Below, in pieces: positions 5,530 through 29,309 of a stretch of DNA of 64,000 nucleotides (positions are counted from its first letter, which is position 1; the number at the start of each line of letters is the position of its first letter). The stretch lies in the NCBI GenBank assembly GCA_965219445.1, contig CBDCNQ010000005.1:1472001-1536000 (forward strand), given 5' to 3'. The notes beneath the pieces were generated by a model. It searched no databases, was not told the DNA's origin, and saw only the letters and a list, made by a program, of their open reading frames with translations. Both the position numbers and the translations under genes were made by a program. Source of the stretch: Longimicrobiales bacterium. GTDB lineage: Bacteria; Gemmatimonadota; Gemmatimonadetes; Longimicrobiales; Gaopeijiaceae.

Positions 5530-6531
5530 CTACCCTGCCTCGGTCGGCCGCGCGACCATCACACCGTCCTGGCCACGGATTCGCTGGATCCTCTCGGCCA
5601 GAGGTACTTCGCTGATCTGTACTACGCCGCCGGCGAGCGGAGCGTGCAGTAGGTGCAGCCGTCCGTCCTGCCACAGGGCGATCCCCGTGTGGGCGATGTC
5701 CAACCCCGCCACGGTGCTGGTGGCCGCGATGATATCCCCATTCTGAATCCCGACCTCGACTCCGGCGATGCGATCCTCAGGGATGTAGTACCGGGGCTCC
5801 GTGCTGAGGCGTTCCTCGACGGCGCTCAGCTCCGTGAGGAAATCCGGATCCTCACCCAATTGGCGGTATGCGTCCGGATGTGTCGTCATGAAGTCGATCG
5901 GCTCGGCATCGGCGACCCCGCCCAGCTCCTGCGACACGTCACGCAAGAGGCCCATCGCATCATTGTCACTGATCCACTCGCTGAAGTAGTGCAAACGGCT
6001 CGGATACTCCCCGAGCTCCCCACCCCGGTAACGGATGTCCTCCAGGAGCCAGGAGAACAACGGCCGTTGGTGACCCTCCGTGCGTGCGACCAACAATGCG
6101 TCGGGGACGATTTGAACGAGGCGCGCCAGCGCCAGGACGTTCTCCACGAAGGTCACGCAGTCCAACTCCTCGAGCTCGATCACGAGGCCCTCTTCGCCGG
6201 GCACCTCGAGGGTATGAGGAGCATAGGGGGTTCCAACGAACGTCTCCCCGATGCGAACGATCAGATCGCCGATGCTCAGATCGGAATATCCCTGCTCCAC
6301 CGCCCAGCGGGCCTTTTCCTCGACGATGGCCCAGTCGGCCTCCGTTCCGGGCAGAGTGGTGGGGCCAGCCGGCGCGTCGGCCCCCGCGCCTAGTTCCGCC
6401 GCCGCCGATTGGGTGGTCGTGCTAGGGAGCGAGCCCTCGGAGGGATCTCCGGAGTTTCCCCCGCAGGCAGAAAGCACACCGGCGCTCAAAATCGCAAGCG
6501 ACCATCGGACCGTCTTGGCTCTGATCAGCAT
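5530..6531 (-). CDS. DUF1460 / NlpC-P60-like N-acetylmuramoyl-L-alanine amidase lipoprotein
   Basis: Lipobox LSAC; GTPY..LDCVTFVE..RYRGG..SRLHYFSEW..GLDIAHTG. Confidence 0.88.
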   Translation of the reverse strand: MLIRAKTVRWSLAILSAGVLSACGGNSGDPSEGSLPSTTTQSAAAELGAGADAPAGPTTLPGTEADWAIVEEKARWAVEQGYSDLSIGDLIVRIGETFVGTPYAPHTLEVPGEEGLVIELEELDCVTFVENVLALARLVQIVPDALLVARTEGHQRPLFSWLLEDIRYRGGELGEYPSRLHYFSEWISDNDAMGLLRDVSQELGGVADAEPIDFMTTHPDAYRQLGEDPDFLTELSAVEERLSTEPRYYIPEDRIAGVEVGIQNGDIIAATSTVAGLDIAHTGIALWQDGRLHLLHAPLAGGVVQISEVPLAERIQRIRGQDGVMVARPTEAG

Positions 6532-22315: not shown

Positions 22316-25300
22316 GTGAGCGCTCACACCAACACTGACGATCCCCTGCGTACTGAGGTGCGTCTCTTCGGAGGGCCCCTGGTGCTCGTGGACGGCGAGG
22401 CGATCAAGCTATCGAAATATCAATCGTACCTCATTGCTCTCGTTTTCGGACACGGAGAGGAAGGGATCTCGCGTTCTCGACTGATCGACTTCTTGTGGGA
22501 TGAGCCCGACGGGGCTGCTCAACGTCATCGGTTGAGTCAGCTGTTGCATGGCGTCACGAAGAAATGCAGTCGGAAGATCATACGGGACGACGGGGGATTC
22601 TTACTAAGCGACCTCTCGGACCTGTCGTGCGACCTCACGCGAGTACTGCGGTCGGTCAGAGGCCAGGATTTTCACGGACTGGACGCGCCGTGCGTCGCTG
22701 ACTTTCTCTCCCGCGTCGAAAACGCACCGACGGTCGCGTTCGAGAGCTGGCATGAATCATCGGCCCGACAGATAGAGGATCACTTCACGGACGCCTTATC
22801 GGCAGCTTGTTCGAGCGCTGAAGCGGAGGCGAGATGGTCCGACCTGGGCGGCCTCTTAACCGTGGCGGTCAACGCCTACCCACCAAATGAAGATTTTCTA
22901 CAGCGTTCTATCCGCCACCTCGTCATGACCGACAGCGCTGATCAGGTCCCAAAAGCGGTGTCAGATTTCGCGGCCTGGTGGGAAAGAGCCCACGGGAGGT
23001 CGTGGGTCCCGGAGCGCGCAACTTCGGAGCTGTGCCAGGAGGCCACCGAGAGTGGCCCTCTGGGGCGAAACACGGATGTCGGAGGCAGCACTACTCCCCT
23101 GGTTGGCCGAGGGCCTGAGCTGAAGTTTCTTCATACACGGCTGTCCGCACGAAAGACAGAGCCGCGACTCATCGTCGTGATGGGAGAAGCAGGAATTGGC
23201 AAAACGAGGATCATCGAGGAGGCGATGCGGCGGATTCGCCTGGACGGTATACGGACTCTTGCGGCCAGGGGAGCTGAATTTGAGGACTGCATTCCCCTTA
23301 GCCCGATCATCGATGTGCTTCAGCAACTGTCGACAGAAGATCTTTCCGTCCTGGGTGAGCCCTGGGTAACGGTGCTGCGAGGCCTCCTGCCGCGAGCACA
23401 CGGAGCACCGGAGAAGACCATCCCGCCCCCCCTCCGACCGTTGAGCCTATCTCGGCGCCTGATGGAAGCCTTTCTTCTTCTGTTCGAACATCTCTCGGAA
23501 CGTCAGCCCCTCACGCTATTTCTTGACGACGTACACTGGATGGACGAGACCTCACTCGCGGTCATTCAGTTCGTCAGGCGGCGGGCCAAGGGTGATCTCA
23601 CGATGGTTCTGGTGTTGACCACCGAGTTGATCCAGAAGCGGGCTTACGTTCAGGAGTTCCTGACCTCCATCAACGGGCAGTACGAACGTCTGTCCGTGGA
23701 AGAACTCGACTCGACCTCCGCGGAGGCCATCGTAGATCACCTCACCCAGGGAGTTCTGCCACCTAGGACACTGGAGTCGATCTGCGCTTTGGGCGCCGGC
23801 AACGCATTCTATCTCACCGAGCTGGCGGCCGAGGCCAACGCAGGACGGCTGGAATTCACCACGGAGCTCGACGAGCCCGCGATTCCTCCGTCAGTGCACA
23901 ACCTCCTCCAGCCCAGATTATTGGAGCTTTCCACAGATGCTAGGGATCTGCTTGCGATATTGGCGATCTGGGGGCAGACACAGCCTCTAGCCGACACCGC
24001 CGAGATGCTGAACAAGACGCTGTCTACCCTCATCGAGCCGAGCGAGGAGCTGCTGCGTTCCCGGCTAGTGGTTGAGGATGAGGGAGGATGTCGTATCGGG
24101 CACCCACTCGTTCGCAGGGCCGTTTATGATTCTCTTAGCACGGCGCGGCGTCGGATGTTGCACGAACACGTGGCCCAATCTCTCAACGCGGACGACGAAG
24201 CCAATTGGGGAGCCCTGGCGATGCACTTCGACAGGGCCGGTAAGGCCACGGAGGCCGTCAAATATTCAATGCTTGCGGCAGAGTTCGCGCAGCGGTCGGG
24301 GGCAATTCCAGAGGCTATCAGACACCTGTCGATCGCCCGGCGGAACGAATCCAATGTGGAAGCAAGGAGTGATATCCTCTGGAGATTGGGGCACCTCCAT
24401 TACCTCCGCCAGGATTTGGCAACCGCGGCTCCCATACTCGGGCTCTCCTGTGAAGGCTTGAGAGCGGCGGGTCGGCGAGGTAGAGCCTGGGAGGCCGAAC
24501 TTGAGGAAATGGATTGCCTCCTTCGCCTCAATCCAGGCCTGACTGCCGACCTCCTGGCCAGGCTTCACGAGATGGAAACAACCCTCAAATCCGAAGGGGA
24601 ATCTGAGGCCTATGCTAAGGCTTTGGATATTGAAGTTCACGCGCTCGACCGAAAGGGAGATGTCCAAGCGATTCGAGCAAAGCTCGAAGAGGCCGATGCA
24701 TTGAGCAGAGTCGGCACACCCCGGGCACAGTGCAGGGCGCATTGCACGTTGGCATTACACCAACTATACGGCATACCCGAGCTCGCCCTCGCGAGTGCTC
24801 GAAAGGCAGTCGCTTTGGCGAAGGCACACGACTCGGTCGCTGAGAGACCGATCGCCATAAATCGGCTAATTGTTGTCCTAAACTATCAGGGACTATTGGC
24901 CTCCACAGGAGGTCTGAATCTCATCACCGACGCGGAAACGGCGGCGGCGCTGACGGGCGATCTACTGCTTCGGTTCACCCTTCGACTTAATAGGGGCGTA
25001 TGGCACTTGGATTCCGGTAATTATGATGCTGCCGAGGTTTCCTTCTGCGAAGCGAGAGAGATAGTCGAGAGTGGAGACTCGGAGGCTGCAAGTGTCCTTC
25101 TGGACGTCAATTGTGGGGAACTCAACTTGGGGCTGGGAAAAAACTCGAAGGCCTTAGAGTTTTTCGAACGAGTAATGAATAAGGATCCGGAATCCCTGCC
25201 CGCTAACCTCTCCCTGAGCGCCAAGGCGGGGTTGGGAATATGCGAACTTCACCAGGGCAATCTGCGGCGTGCCGTCGAGAGGCATGATCTAATGCAATTC

Positions 25301-25582
25301 CCAAGCCATTGGTCCTTCGACCCAACGCTACCCATCACTTTCCGAGCCCGCATTCGTCGGTGCAATAGTGACCTGCCGGGTGCCTTAGGAGTCTTGCGTG
25401 CGACCGCTGAACAAGTCGAAACGAGGTTCCCCTTGAGTTGGATCAAGCTTCGTATGGAGGAAATTCGACTCTTACGAACCACCGACGAAGCCACGGCAGG
25501 CCGGCTGGCCGACGATGTGTCAAGAAAGGCTATGAACTTGGGACTCACTCATCAGCAGAAGAGAATTCAAGCCCTCGTTTAA
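22316..25582 (+). CDS. SARP/BTAD-like wHTH + AAA ATPase (STAND-like) + TPR regulator
   Basis: VRLFGGP..ISRSRLIDFLWDE; LVGRGPEL; Walker A GEAGIGKT; Walker B LFLDDVHWMD; helical repeats. Confidence 0.88.
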   Translation: MSAHTNTDDPLRTEVRLFGGPLVLVDGEAIKLSKYQSYLIALVFGHGEEGISRSRLIDFLWDEPDGAAQRHRLSQLLHGVTKKCSRKIIRDDGGFLLSDLSDLSCDLTRVLRSVRGQDFHGLDAPCVADFLSRVENAPTVAFESWHESSARQIEDHFTDALSAACSSAEAEARWSDLGGLLTVAVNAYPPNEDFLQRSIRHLVMTDSADQVPKAVSDFAAWWERAHGRSWVPERATSELCQEATESGPLGRNTDVGGSTTPLVGRGPELKFLHTRLSARKTEPRLIVVMGEAGIGKTRIIEEAMRRIRLDGIRTLAARGAEFEDCIPLSPIIDVLQQLSTEDLSVLGEPWVTVLRGLLPRAHGAPEKTIPPPLRPLSLSRRLMEAFLLLFEHLSERQPLTLFLDDVHWMDETSLAVIQFVRRRAKGDLTMVLVLTTELIQKRAYVQEFLTSINGQYERLSVEELDSTSAEAIVDHLTQGVLPPRTLESICALGAGNAFYLTELAAEANAGRLEFTTELDEPAIPPSVHNLLQPRLLELSTDARDLLAILAIWGQTQPLADTAEMLNKTLSTLIEPSEELLRSRLVVEDEGGCRIGHPLVRRAVYDSLSTARRRMLHEHVAQSLNADDEANWGALAMHFDRAGKATEAVKYSMLAAEFAQRSGAIPEAIRHLSIARRNESNVEARSDILWRLGHLHYLRQDLATAAPILGLSCEGLRAAGRRGRAWEAELEEMDCLLRLNPGLTADLLARLHEMETTLKSEGESEAYAKALDIEVHALDRKGDVQAIRAKLEEADALSRVGTPRAQCRAHCTLALHQLYGIPELALASARKAVALAKAHDSVAERPIAINRLIVVLNYQGLLASTGGLNLITDAETAAALTGDLLLRFTLRLNRGVWHLDSGNYDAAEVSFCEAREIVESGDSEAASVLLDVNCGELNLGLGKNSKALEFFERVMNKDPESLPANLSLSAKAGLGICELHQGNLRRAVERHDLMQFPSHWSFDPTLPITFRARIRRCNSDLPGALGVLRATAEQVETRFPLSWIKLRMEEIRLLRTTDEATAGRLADDVSRKAMNLGLTHQQKRIQALV

Positions 25583-25665: not shown

Positions 25666-27055
25666 TCACCGGTTCAGCCTCCCCCAGGATGCCTCAGATC
25701 TTCGTCGATAAGTTCCCGTTGAGGCGCTTCCATGGATCGTCTCTGGCACATTCAAGCCAGCTGCTAAGATCTCGTCGGCGTGGTCTTGCAGCACCGAGGA
25801 CGATACGATCGCGTGGACGACGCCGGGATCAAACTGTGTACCGCAGAACTCGAGTAATTCCTCCCGAACGACAGCGAGTGGAAGGGCCTTTCGATAGGGT
25901 CGGTCGGACAGCATCGCATCTATTGCATCCGCCACCTTGATAATTCGAGCGCCTATGGGGATCTCGTTTCCGACTAGTCCGTGCGGATATCCTCCACCAT
26001 CTACGCGCTCATGATGGTGTCGAACGGCACCAAGCACAGCCTCAGGGTAGGACGAAAGTGACTCGAGTAGCTCTACGCCCGTCGTGACATGAGATTGGAT
26101 CACCCTCCGTTCGAGCACGTTGAGTGGCCCTTCCTTCTGAAGGATTTCCACGTAGATCTCGTCGATCTTCCCAATATCATGAAGCAGCGCTGCAGTCTCG
26201 ACGTATTTGGCCTGTGTAGTGGAGAGACCCAAGGGTTTCGGCAATGCGACGGGATAACGTTGAAACACGCTGCGAATGGCCGGACGTGTACGGATCGCGA
26301 ACATCGATGGCCTTGACGAGAGCCTTCAAGAGGTTGGCACTCACCTCCTGAAGCTGGAAGGTCCTGAGGTAGGCTGTTCGGATGAACAAGAGGGGCAAAA
26401 TGACGAGAAGAAAGCCAGCAATGTTGTAATCCACATAAAGAAATGCCATTACGATCGAGATCGGACTTATAAGCAGATCGTAACCCAGATTCGCACCTGA
26501 GCGGCCTACAACAAGGTCCAATACCCTTCGGAATGGCATGCTCTCCATGATCGCAATGGCGATGGCCACGGCGCTTTGATTGACCACGAGGAAAGTCAAG
26601 CCGAATCCGACAAGTTGAACGCCCTGAATCGCGAACGGTGTGGTGACTGTAGCCTGTGGAACACCGCCAAGCGCCTCAAACACGATGCCCCCCACGACCG
26701 TACAAAGCAGATACTGACTGATGTTGAAGATCGCTTTGATGGGCTCGTTCCGGCGAACAATGACCTCGCCGAACGCGCCGGTGGCAGCGTGGAGGATTAC
26801 CGCAGGAACCGGCCCGAAAAGCAGGACGCAGGTAAGCAGCGGCAAAAACGTGATCGACGAACTGCCTGAATTTCCCGCGAGCTTGACCTTAATGGAGAGG
26901 GCTTCCGAGACGAGACCCAGTATCACGAGAGATAACAAGCCCGCCCAGGACTCAAATGATAGGGAGCTCAGGACCCCCCAATCCAGCAAGAAAAAGGATC
27001 CTGTAGCGAGCGCCACAACGCATCCAACATAGATCCTAAACGAGCTGCTCTGCAT
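25666..27055 (-). CDS. Membrane-sensor (MASE9-like) HD-GYP c-di-GMP phosphodiesterase, split by a +1 frameshift at about 26228-26230
   Basis: About 7 TM segments; RDPYTSGHSQRV in ORF 26177-27055; LLHDIGK, HHERVDGGGYPHGL, ADAIDAMLSDRPYR in ORF 25666-26304; deleting one G of GGG joins them as ETLGLSTTQAKYV. Confidence 0.88.
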
Positions 27056-27064
27056 GCGCGAAAG

Positions 27065-27241
27065 CCCCCCTCGACGGCCCGTCTAGATACCCAAAATGCC
27101 TCTAAAGAGCAAAGCTCCTAGAAAATTGAACAGAGAGCTAAACATGAGCTGCACCTCCTTTCGTAGGTGTCAGCTTCTACCGCTCAAGAAGCTGCGGCCG
27201 CTTCGCTCGCTCCCCGCTCCGCTCTTGGCCCGTCGAGGGGG
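27065..27241 (-). promoter_or_regulatory. Structured intergenic RNA: long-range 14/15-bp inverted repeat plus two hairpins
   Basis: CCCCCTCGACGGGCC (27241-27227) pairs with GGGCCGTCGAGGGGG (27080-27066); CAGCTTCT/AGAAGCTG stem 27171-27194; CACCTAC-GAAA-GGAGGTG 27152-27169. Confidence 0.6.
27083..27145 (-). CDS. 20-aa hydrophobic peptide MFSSLFNFLGALLFRGILGI
   Basis: Perfect RBS AAAGGAGGT 7 nt before the ATG at 27145; TAG at 27083-27085; stop lies 27 nt upstream of the HD-GYP ATG. Confidence 0.7.
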   Translation of the reverse strand: MFSSLFNFLGALLFRGILGI

Positions 27242-27275
27242 TCTCCCTTTTACTTTGAGTCTTGCGGGGCTCCGC

Positions 27276-27965
27276 TCAGATTCTGCCTCGGACCCAACGG
27301 TCCGCGGCCTGTAGCGTCCCCATTATTACAGCCCTATCGGCTGTGTCTTCAACGGCCGCAGCCCCCGCGAGGGCCGTGATCGACCGTCCGTGAATCGCAT
27401 GTATCCCAACCAAGACGAACTGTCCGTCGAACGCCTCGACTGGTTTCACTCCATCTACTGATAACGCTACTTCACCCTCGCCGAGTAAGGCAATGATCGC
27501 CCTCTCGATGGCACGCAGCGTCGCCTCGAGTCTCGCCCGAGGAAGGTCGGCCCCACTCGCTTCTCCCTCATACTGCTCGCCGCCCCACTCCACCGTGACG
27601 GCGACCCTCACTCGGTGCGCCTTCTCCGCGTTGACCCGGTGGGTCACGAAGAGAAACCGCCCCTCTGCACTCCGGCCTCCGAACCCCCTCAAAGCTGTCA
27701 GCGCAGCAGCCTGCTCATCTTCTTTCTGCGCGACCGACACCTTTCGGTGGTCGATCTTCAGACCGAAGTGAGCCAGCAGCGCCGACTCCACATTCCGGAC
27801 CGACTGTTTCGCCGGCACGTCCCCCTCCGTGAGGAGGTGGATCTCCTCTATCACTCCACCGGGGCGAGCCACGACTCGCGCCGACACGACTCCCCGAAGT
27901 GAGTTGAGAAGCGACTCTGCCCTCTCGATGTTCCACTCAGATTTGGGGGTCAGTTCTGCGTCCAC
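27276..27965 (-). CDS. Conserved hypothetical protein; C-terminal half resembles a LeuA allosteric-type domain
   Basis: IEEIHLLT..AKQSVRNVESALLAHFGLKIDHRKVSVAQ; YEGEASG..ATLRAIERA..LAGAAAV..RAVIMGTLQAADR. Confidence 0.8.
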   Translation of the reverse strand: MDAELTPKSEWNIERAESLLNSLRGVVSARVVARPGGVIEEIHLLTEGDVPAKQSVRNVESALLAHFGLKIDHRKVSVAQKEDEQAAALTALRGFGGRSAEGRFLFVTHRVNAEKAHRVRVAVTVEWGGEQYEGEASGADLPRARLEATLRAIERAIIALLGEGEVALSVDGVKPVEAFDGQFVLVGIHAIHGRSITALAGAAAVEDTADRAVIMGTLQAADRWVRGRI

Positions 27966-28449
27966 TACTTTGCGGGTTCGAGGAACGATTTATTGGGCGA
28001 GTCCGAGCAACGACCATTCCGGCCACTCGAACTTGGCCCCACTCCACCGTTCATCGTTCCGGCATTCATGGCCGGCAGAACCGCAGCCCCCTTTGCGTGG
28101 GTTCTCCCTCTCATCTGTTTCCGAGTCGAAATTTTCCTGGACACATCCCTCCTGCGCACGAGTATTCTCGTCCTGAGGGGGGAAATTGAGGCACTTGATA
28201 TGAAGGCCAAAGGCGACGCCTGTCAAGGATTTCATTTTTTTCGCAAACATTTGACGTCAACGGGAGCCGTCATCGCTCTAAGTTGGTTCAGGGATGTAAC
28301 CTTAGGAAAGTGTCCAAAATAGGAAACACTTGGAGTTGGGTTCTGACCGGGTCAGCCACCCAGCGATCTGGACACAGCCTCGGGCCTCAGTATAGACTAC
28401 ACGATACGGGTGAACACCTAGAAGCTCGCCTCAACAGGACCCCGAAACC

Positions 28450-29161
28450 ATGGTGAAATCCGGCGGTGCGGCCGCACTCGTCTTCGTTCTCTCCCTCCTT
28501 CTCGGTGGCTGCGCCTCGGGTGGCTCGATCCCGGTTGTGGACGTCGTGAATCTTCCATCGGTGACGCGAACGGGTATTCAGCCGGGGCGACCAGGTGAGC
28601 ATCGCCTTCTACACGGCGGCGGGAACAAGACTGGACGAGGTCTCCGGTGAGCGCACGGTGGATCCCAACGGCGAGCTCTTTCTTCCCTTTCTCGGTACCG
28701 TCTCGGTACTCGGGATGGAGTCGGCCGACATCCGGAAGCTCCTGGAGGAGCGGTATGGAGCCCTCTATTCGAGTCCGGTCGTCGAGGTGGTCACACAGGT
28801 GAATGTGAACATCACGGGCGCGGTCCGGATTCCAGGCCAGTATTTCGTCTCGCCTTCGGCGACGTTGGTCGATGCCCTGGCTCTCGCCGGGGGAGCAACG
28901 TCCGAGCTCGACTTCTCACTGCAGGGTGGAGCGTCCGATCCGAGCCAAGTGCGCCTCGTCCGCGACGGCGTCGGCACGGTGCTCGACCTGCGTCCCCTCG
29001 ACGTACGCCCCGAGGTGATCGACCTCCTGGTCCAGTCGGGTGACTGGCTCTACGTGCCCAGAGCTCAGAGCTCCCAACTCAGACAGGATGTTTCCTTCTG
29101 GGGGAGTGTGCTCAGCACCCTCTTCACTGGGGTATCCCTCGTCATCCTGATCGCCCGGTAG
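28450..29161 (+). CDS. Polysaccharide export (Wza/SLBB) lipoprotein, +1 frameshift in the G run at 28584-28587
   Basis: Lipobox LGGC; IQPG|DQVSIAF; VDPNGELFLPFLG; GAVRIPGQY..TLVDALALAGG; LVQSGDWLYVP. Confidence 0.85.
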
Positions 29162-29236: not shown

Positions 29237-29309
29237 TCCCGCGTAGCTCAGTTGGTAGAGCAGACGGCTGTTAACCGTCTTGTCGCTGGTTCGAGTCCAG
29301 CCGCGGGAG
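29237..29309 (+). tRNA. tRNA-Asn (GTT), CCA not encoded
   Basis: Acceptor stem TCCCGCG/CGCGGGA, D arm AGCTCAGTTGGTAGAGC, anticodon arm GACGG-CTGTTAA-CCGTC, T loop GGTTCGAGTCC. Confidence 0.97.

Follow-up and report, generated by a model that had tools for sequence, protein, structure and literature searches.

The locus described here lies on the minus strand of the window (the whole 64,000-nucleotide stretch of DNA analysed, from a Longimicrobiales bacterium of the Gemmatimonadota), where the order is gene U, leader, peptide, MASE9 (PF20972) and HD-GYP (PF13487). The genes and features are as follows:

27276..27965, minus strand: gene U, encoding a 229-aa protein, directly upstream of the leader in nearly all loci
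27227..27247, minus strand: 5' arm of the long-range helix P1, with its core at 27241-27227
27199..27224, minus strand: AGCG(G/A)A repeat cluster, with invariant alignment columns and less variable than any other part of the RNA
27169..27195, minus strand: P2 hairpin, with an 8-bp stem, a bulged A27170 and an extra AGCGG in the loop (27184-27180)
27152..27169, minus strand: P3, a weak hairpin (72.5% of cells paired) over the peptide RBS AAGGAGGTG (27160-27152)
27083..27145, minus strand: 20-codon hydrophobic peptide ORF, MFSSLFNFLGALLFRGILGI, with a codon-position pattern
27060..27080, minus strand: 3' arm of P1, holding the SD-like G-run of the HD-GYP gene (27072-27065)
26177..27055, minus strand: MASE9 sensor domain and the start of the HD domain, the first piece of a frameshifted gene (PF20972)
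25666..26304, minus strand: rest of the HD-GYP domain, in another frame (PF13487)

P1 joins 27247-27227 with 27080-27060, and enclosed within it are the AGCG(G/A)A repeats, a covarying hairpin, a strong RBS and the 20-codon hydrophobic ORF. Its core was already described in the original prediction and was recovered as such, CCCCCTCGACGGGCC (27241-27227) pairing with GGGCCGTCGAGGGGG (27080-27066) at 14 of 15 positions, with a G-G mismatch at 27229/27078. The placement claimed for the second arm was likewise correct: it starts 2 nt past the peptide TAG (27085-27083) and contains the HD-GYP RBS, the G-run of which ends 9 nt before the ATG at 27055, or 10 nt counting from the 7-mer GAGGGGG. Beyond the core, the helix is lengthened via GGGAGA/CTTTC to about 19 pairs. 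P1 is the top inverted repeat of the region, and no comparable inverted repeat was present in 1500 random 250-nt windows of the same contig. In addition, it is found in both the minimum-energy and the centroid structures of the leader, which is more stable than its shuffles (z = -3.49, 0/200 shuffles as stable; for a wider cut, z = -2.32, 5/200). The leader is single-copy in the genome, with one blastn match, one repeat cluster and one strong model match. MITE, REP or IS ends, or another inverted repeat of the DNA, were rejected on the single copy, on the sense duplex being stronger than the antisense duplex in 59 of 72 loci, and on the pattern of G-U pairs described below.

The MASE9 gene was found in 80 of the 201 genomes of the family. 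A total of 74 own-family loci were read, the window included (70 from the genome search, with the weakest matches left out, and 4 others), and the common layout was observed in 72 of them, the other two being one at a contig edge and one with a deletion. One genome contributes two loci among the 72, and since these are kin loci, the counts overstate independence. In a MAFFT alignment of 64 of the 72 loci (the 8 with long insertions, uncertain starts or extra repeats being left out), P1 was 92% paired and 9 of its 13 pairs showed two-sided changes, and P2 had 88.7% of cells paired with two-sided changes in 7 of 9 pairs, so the conserved pairing with compensatory change proposed as a check of the original prediction is present. 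The covariation score was 0.375, compared with 0.206 in shuffles (0/500) and 0.125 or less when slid. An alignment-free duplex test gave a mean of -36.6 kcal/mol for native arms vs -28.6 kcal/mol for cross-species arms, and every one of the 72 loci beat its median foreign partner. Pairs that are not Watson-Crick are G-U when read on the mRNA strand (pair 20-301 has 15 U-G and 0 unpaired), indicating that P1 is RNA of the mRNA strand. Both arms are needed in one transcript, and a main transcription start downstream of 27227 is therefore unlikely. Judged by these sequence comparisons, the helix is RNA, and selection acts on the repeats, the hairpin and the ORF inside it.

The AGCG(G/A)A repeats had been overlooked in the original prediction. 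They sit between arm 1 and P2, a further copy is found in most P2 loops, and the cluster at 27199-27224 is the only one of its kind in the genome. The number of copies varies from 3 to 7 in the own family (overlapping counts), with variable spacing. The perfect 8-bp stem of the original prediction corresponds to CAGCUUCU/AGAAGCUG at 27194-27187/27178-27171, and the bulged A at the base of P2 is among the most invariant letters in the own family. The hairpin with a GAAA tetraloop that had been drawn over the peptide RBS does exist at 27169-27152, but it contains one A-G mismatch and its tetraloop is not conserved; only two C/U-G pairs of P3 are well kept in the own-family alignment.

Complementarity of the repeats to the peptide start region exceeded that of shuffles in 67 of 68 own-family loci and in 27 of 31 other Gemmatimonadota loci (mean z -1.7 and -1.4, with 4 loci of uncertain start dropped from each set), which is a modest and non-independent signal. 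The same test found no such complementarity in the Bacillota loci, and a tetramer version of it was weak, control windows matching in 37 of 68. When free, the repeat cluster is predicted by these pairing calculations to pair with the peptide start region. One short motif in variable copy number and spacing is the usual signature of a protein site; the array is a likely protein site with U as the candidate binder, and it is probably the true input of the leader. Another AGCGGA (27276-27271) overlaps the U stop codon, outside P1, and similar extra copies precede arm 1 in several relatives. Other repeats were also seen, namely AGCGTAG repeats beside an intact U at loci L235 and L249, while locus L239 has the peptide and neither U nor the repeat cluster.

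The repeat/P2 core can also be read as a metabolite riboswitch, for a cyclic dinucleotide for example, with P3 and P1 as its expression platform. Invariant unpaired nucleotides and a conserved bulged A beside an RBS, upstream of a c-di-GMP enzyme and in two phyla, would suit such a sensor, but the conserved letters amount to one short motif in 3-7 copies with variable spacing, and there was no match in Rfam. The Rfam search of 26500-28500 gave one chance match (E 1.9) inside a coding region, and 8 related loci gave 0 matches at the gathering score. We consider a riboswitch very unlikely, and the known families suggested in the original prediction (c-di-GMP-I/II and other Rfam families) find no support in this search. 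A CsrA/RsmA target or sponge was rejected as well, CsrA being present in 6 of 81 genomes of the class and not in the host genome, and many repeats being AGCGAA. TRAP and ANTAR patterns were dropped on motif shape only.

Gene U had no match in Pfam or NCBIfam. Its relatives comprise 3048 representatives at 50% identity, and homologues also occur without the leader. In the structure model of U (pLDDT 90.5), the N-terminal alpha/beta domain resembles the tails of CDF transporters and BolA (6vd9_A, Z 9.2, rmsd 2.1, 68 aligned), the C-terminal part has a LeuA/CMS regulatory-like fold (3f6g_B, Z 9.9, rmsd 3.2, 110 aligned), and weaker matches to dsRNA-binding domains were found. Metal-transporter tails and amino-acid-binding domains are matched no less well than RNA-binding ones. 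The modelled fold would thus allow RNA binding together with ligand sensing, and the location of the gene and its co-occurrence with the repeats point to U as the best candidate binder.

The peptide has a GRAVY of 1.6, and an alternative GTG start is located 9 nt upstream of its start. Codon entropy among 16 related 23-mers was 0.24 bits at position 2 vs 1.22 at position 3, and in the comparison with three close relatives, 14 changed codons were synonymous and 9 were not. From these substitution patterns, the peptide appears to be coding and under purifying selection. A terminal Trp is present in the peptides of 63 of 72 relatives; the window peptide does not have it, and it has also been lost in two close relatives, whose enzymes are intact or unread. 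Two genomes carry two loci each: in G004 the copies (L005 and L035) encode different peptides, and in G007 (L006 and L039) one copy of U is cut by an insertion sequence and the other locus keeps the leader.

A short hydrophobic ORF inside an RNA with paired 5' and 3' ends is also what a type I toxin-antitoxin locus with an antisense RNA would look like, as the original prediction had suggested. Here P1 covers the start of the next gene and not the SD of the peptide, P3 over the peptide SD is weak, the unit is single-copy and fixed between two genes in an operon, and the peptide is neutral or acidic in 68 of 72 own-family loci. No promoter-like site of the plus strand was found over the leader, and neither the proposed antisense RNA nor the toxin found support. 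A type I toxin locus is regarded as extremely unlikely.

The masking of the HD-GYP start was assessed by position and by predicted cost of opening. Of 69 own-family loci, 67 have an SD-like run inside P1, and the median distance from the peptide stop to the helix is 2 nt. Opening the HD-GYP start (-17..+8) costs a median of 21.1 kcal/mol (n = 70; 22.0 in the window), compared with a baseline of 11.4 kcal/mol over 90 genome controls, of which 1 reached 21 or more; when arm 1 was left out, the cost was 10.7 kcal/mol. In the folding model, P1 of the own family thus makes the HD-GYP start about twice as costly to open. Six columns of the outer 3' arm are purine in 98-100% of the 64 rows, the adjacent inner columns being variable, and this purine-only arm fits a second role as SD. 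The spacing from the G-run to the AUG has a median of about 11 nt (range 6-17) vs a genome median of 7, and the run may therefore be a poor SD.

The most probable reading is that P1 closes around the gene of the peptide and masks the MASE9-HD-GYP start, that translation of the peptide opens P1, and that the enzyme is made only afterwards, to which we give about an even chance. In its first step, the repeat/P2/P3 element would gate the peptide start, probably via a protein binding the AGCG(G/A)A repeats, with U as the best candidate. In the second, a ribosome ending at the peptide stop would melt the inner half of P1, to be followed by reinitiation or by entry of a 30S subunit at the HD-GYP start 23-49 nt away. 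In the third, the peptide would be a product in its own right, probably serving MASE9 as a ligand or as a partner in the membrane. With a +9 ribosome footprint, the median opening cost was 17.8 kcal/mol (14.8 in the window), with a median drop of only 1.1 and just 29 of 70 loci dropping by at least 3 kcal/mol, and with a +15 footprint it was 9.7 (7.4 in the window), which is about the baseline. A ribosome at the peptide stop thus removes the cost only with a reach of about 15 nt, so coupling is plausible and unproven. The true reach of the ribosome is probably between +9 and +15, and coupling is therefore feasible, with reinitiation as the easiest route. In several loci of other Gemmatimonadota families the HD-GYP start has no SD before it, but the helix is retained 3-15 nt upstream of the AUG, as would suit a start that depends on reinitiation; a helix end at that distance is still inside the 30S footprint.

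Outside the Gemmatimonadota the arrangement differs. Among the Bacillota loci, 25 of 40 passed a strict stem test, the SD was wholly outside the helix in 18 of these 25, and the median distance from the stop to the helix was 12 nt, about as far as a ribosome would reach; start codons in this set were called automatically and a few are doubtful. Since the SD is free of the helix there, masking is lineage-specific, and the shared ancestral role would not be SD masking; the helix is, by this phylogenetic distribution, older than SD masking. The claim that translation of the phosphodiesterase depends on a ribosome finishing the peptide is supported in part: masking by position and the doubled opening cost (22 vs 11.4) speak for it at this locus, but masking is not universal. 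Because the SD is left free in the Bacillota, the same helix would act there via another output, RNA stability or termination.

Such an output is central to the main rival reading, in which P1 is mainly a clamp that defines a stable peptide mRNA of about 190 nt, single-strand nucleases trimming the operon transcript to the helix ends, so that the peptide RNA outlasts the U and HD-GYP RNA and the SD of this lineage is covered only incidentally. Families of the Bacillota and Gemmatimonadota in which the helix holds no SD have retained it, the G/C orientation and the A/U flanks flip between lineages, and the enclosed loop stays at 145-243 nt in the loci passing the stem test, all of which argues for a clamp, but the outer 3' arm of the own family is purine-constrained beyond the needs of pairing and the helix lies close up to the peptide stop on one side and the HD-GYP start on the other. 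We regard the clamp as the main role as rather doubtful, and it could act together with coupling.

Processing of P1 by RNase III was excluded. RNase III was not found in the host genome G000 (91.8% complete), and PF00636 was detected in 1 of 101 genomes of the class (families f1-f9) vs 18 of 19 in the other classes of the phylum; since no RNase III was found in G000 or in 100 of the 101 genomes of the class, P1 does not serve as an RNase III site here. This is an apparent class-wide loss of RNase III, and a search by title found no paper on such a loss.

In a further rival reading, P1 is an intrinsic terminator with a giant loop, at which a ribosome trailing RNA polymerase would cover arm 2 and allow read-through (attenuation). 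At least 5 U in the 8 nt after the core were found in 12 of 32 Bacillota loci, and U exceeds A in 50 of 72 own-family tails; against this, the tails reaching 5 U number just 6 of 72 in the own family and 2 of 22 in other Gemmatimonadota, the Bacillota have several A-rich tails that pair with U-runs upstream, and the tail in the window is CTTTCGCGC. We consider an attenuator of this type distinctly unlikely; in the Bacillota loci it may nevertheless operate.

To return to the coupled leader, its distribution was followed beyond the own family. MASE9-HD-GYP enzymes were found in 111 of 251 genomes of Gemmatimonadota and in 56 of 151 genomes of a second phylum. In other Gemmatimonadota families the arm sequences are unrelated and the G/C orientation is sometimes flipped, yet the arms pair, 21 of 26 loci passing the stem test. 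A further 9 full-length loci, 6 of them from other classes, had the same layout by eye and by model. In the phylum of genome G438, which includes a locus nearly identical to one Bacillota plasmid record, the peptide is present in 40 of the 50 MASE9 loci read, with U upstream in 39 (one recognised by eye from its C-terminus), and the remaining 10 loci, one of which is cut by a contig end, have neither U nor the peptide. Two Bacillota plasmid records carry U, the helix, the repeats and the peptide. The MASE9 query on plasmids returned no record, no relative of U was found on viral contigs, and an Atlas search with a homologue gave clusters of Gemmatimonadota only.

The RNA model R1, trained on the own family only and with E-values that are rough, matched the leader in other Gemmatimonadota (26 of 27 loci), in all 9 of the further full-length loci and in Bacillota loci bearing the peptide (18 of 41; E <= 1, with 11 of these 18 at E <= 0.01). 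All 44 matches (26 + 18) were on the coding strand, and the controls gave none, neither in 16 loci with a U homologue and no MASE9 nor in 9 MASE9 loci without the peptide. Two phyla share the order U - leader - peptide - MASE9-HD-GYP, and the enclosed loop is 145-243 nt in the loci passing the stem test. At locus L218, U and P1 are present and AGCG repeats are absent; GAGAT-type repeats lie beside its intact U (1003-1265). The leader is thus real and widespread: a cis-regulatory RNA that carries a micro-gene inside it, covaries strongly, is absent from Rfam and has apparently not been described. The helix is used differently in two phyla and so offers a test case for one long-range helix switching outputs.

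The tap-repA, mok-hok and MS2 coat-replicase systems are mechanisms of leader-ORF coupling. As in these, a masked start is proposed to become accessible through translation of an ORF upstream of it; in contrast to them, the 5' arm here lies upstream of the ORF and not within it, and no antisense RNA is evident. In addition, the peptide sequence here is under purifying selection, with the Trp end in 63 of 72, unlike tap or mok. The leader most likely works in this general manner, and we would accept this about as readily as doubt it. It is outside the classes of type I toxins, known riboswitches, RNase III sites and CsrA sites.

The closest likeness in the literature is the infC-rpmI-rplT operator of E. 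coli, where, in the available part of PMC1888825, a far-upstream segment pairs beside a downstream initiation site, genes are translationally coupled within an operon, and the pseudoknot is bound by ribosomal protein L20, which is encoded in the same operon. Here, by contrast, a simple helix surrounds a whole micro-gene and a repeat array, a signalling enzyme is regulated, and the protein binder is only a candidate. The leader shares with type I toxin mRNAs, as the accessible text of PMC8594479 describes them, a small hydrophobic ORF in an RNA with paired ends; that text mentions leader ORFs of Hok/Ldr, and its T1TAdb treats covering of the toxin ORF's own SD as the key determinant. In the present RNA, the SD of the peptide is not hidden by the pairing, and the unit is intergenic in a fixed operon and single-copy.

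The MASE9-HD-GYP proteins TM1467 and HdgA (bioRxiv 10.1101/2021.11.05.467447, PMC6205966, each in its available part) have PF20972 plus HD_5, as here. The available portion of the MASE9 paper (bioRxiv 10.1101/2021.11.05.467447) proposes ligand binding within the membrane and names no ligand, and that of PMC6205966 reports that HdgA was poorly expressed. A leader RNA, a peptide and a U gene are absent from the available portions of both texts, the word 'peptide' occurring 0 times in that of PMC6205966. A literature search found no description of the U-leader-peptide-MASE9-HD-GYP module within its scope, which was without most subscription journals and the supplements of RNA-motif surveys, where the motif could be listed. 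MASE9-HD-GYP proteins are widespread orphan sensors, with the one studied member barely expressed in the laboratory; if the leader keeps the enzyme off until the peptide is translated, this would explain the poor laboratory expression and would name the peptide and U as partners.

The MASE9 domain was modelled in the orthologue at L090 (1187-1891) with a pLDDT of 91.3. The best structural match was 4huq_S (Z 12.1, rmsd 3.4, 160 aligned), and the top 14 matches were all ECF S-components or metal-binding relatives. MASE9 is thus predicted to have the fold of a small-ligand-binding ECF S-component; Z alone is not decisive for helical proteins, and the matches are homogeneous. Joining these elements, a four-part relay can be proposed, in which an RNA-binding U would read the AGCG(G/A)A repeats and free the start of the micro-gene, its translation would open the helix and switch on the c-di-GMP phosphodiesterase, and the Trp-ending peptide would be the ligand of MASE9, an ECF S-component fold being reused as a peptide receptor, in at least two phyla. 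As a whole this relay is tentative and improbable.

In the window strain, the HD-GYP gene has one extra base near 26227 compared with two intact relatives, which the original prediction had overlooked. Three runs from two studies (X1, X2 and X6) gave contigs that agree with the window over this position without a difference, although one of the runs may be the source sample, and related strains in run X9 are without a base near 26227. An assembly error was rejected as the cause of the frameshift, as the short-read contigs of the three runs agree with the window. Most relatives have a single open frame of about 460-510 codons, and the HD-GYP enzyme of the window strain is, from the broken frame, probably inactive.

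Further genes are found around the module. On the plus strand at 22316-25582, a gene for a 1088-aa AAA/TPR protein (STAND-type) is convergent with the HD-GYP gene; a homologue is present in 48 of the 80 related loci, about 50 of which are long enough to show one, and this gene may be part of the system. A divergent polysaccharide-export/SLBB gene (28595-29161, plus strand) occurs in 33 of the 80 related loci and is followed in the window by a tRNA-Asn (29237-29309, plus strand). In the Natranaerobius record L211, a DUF5317 gene (5726-6233) follows the HD-GYP gene.
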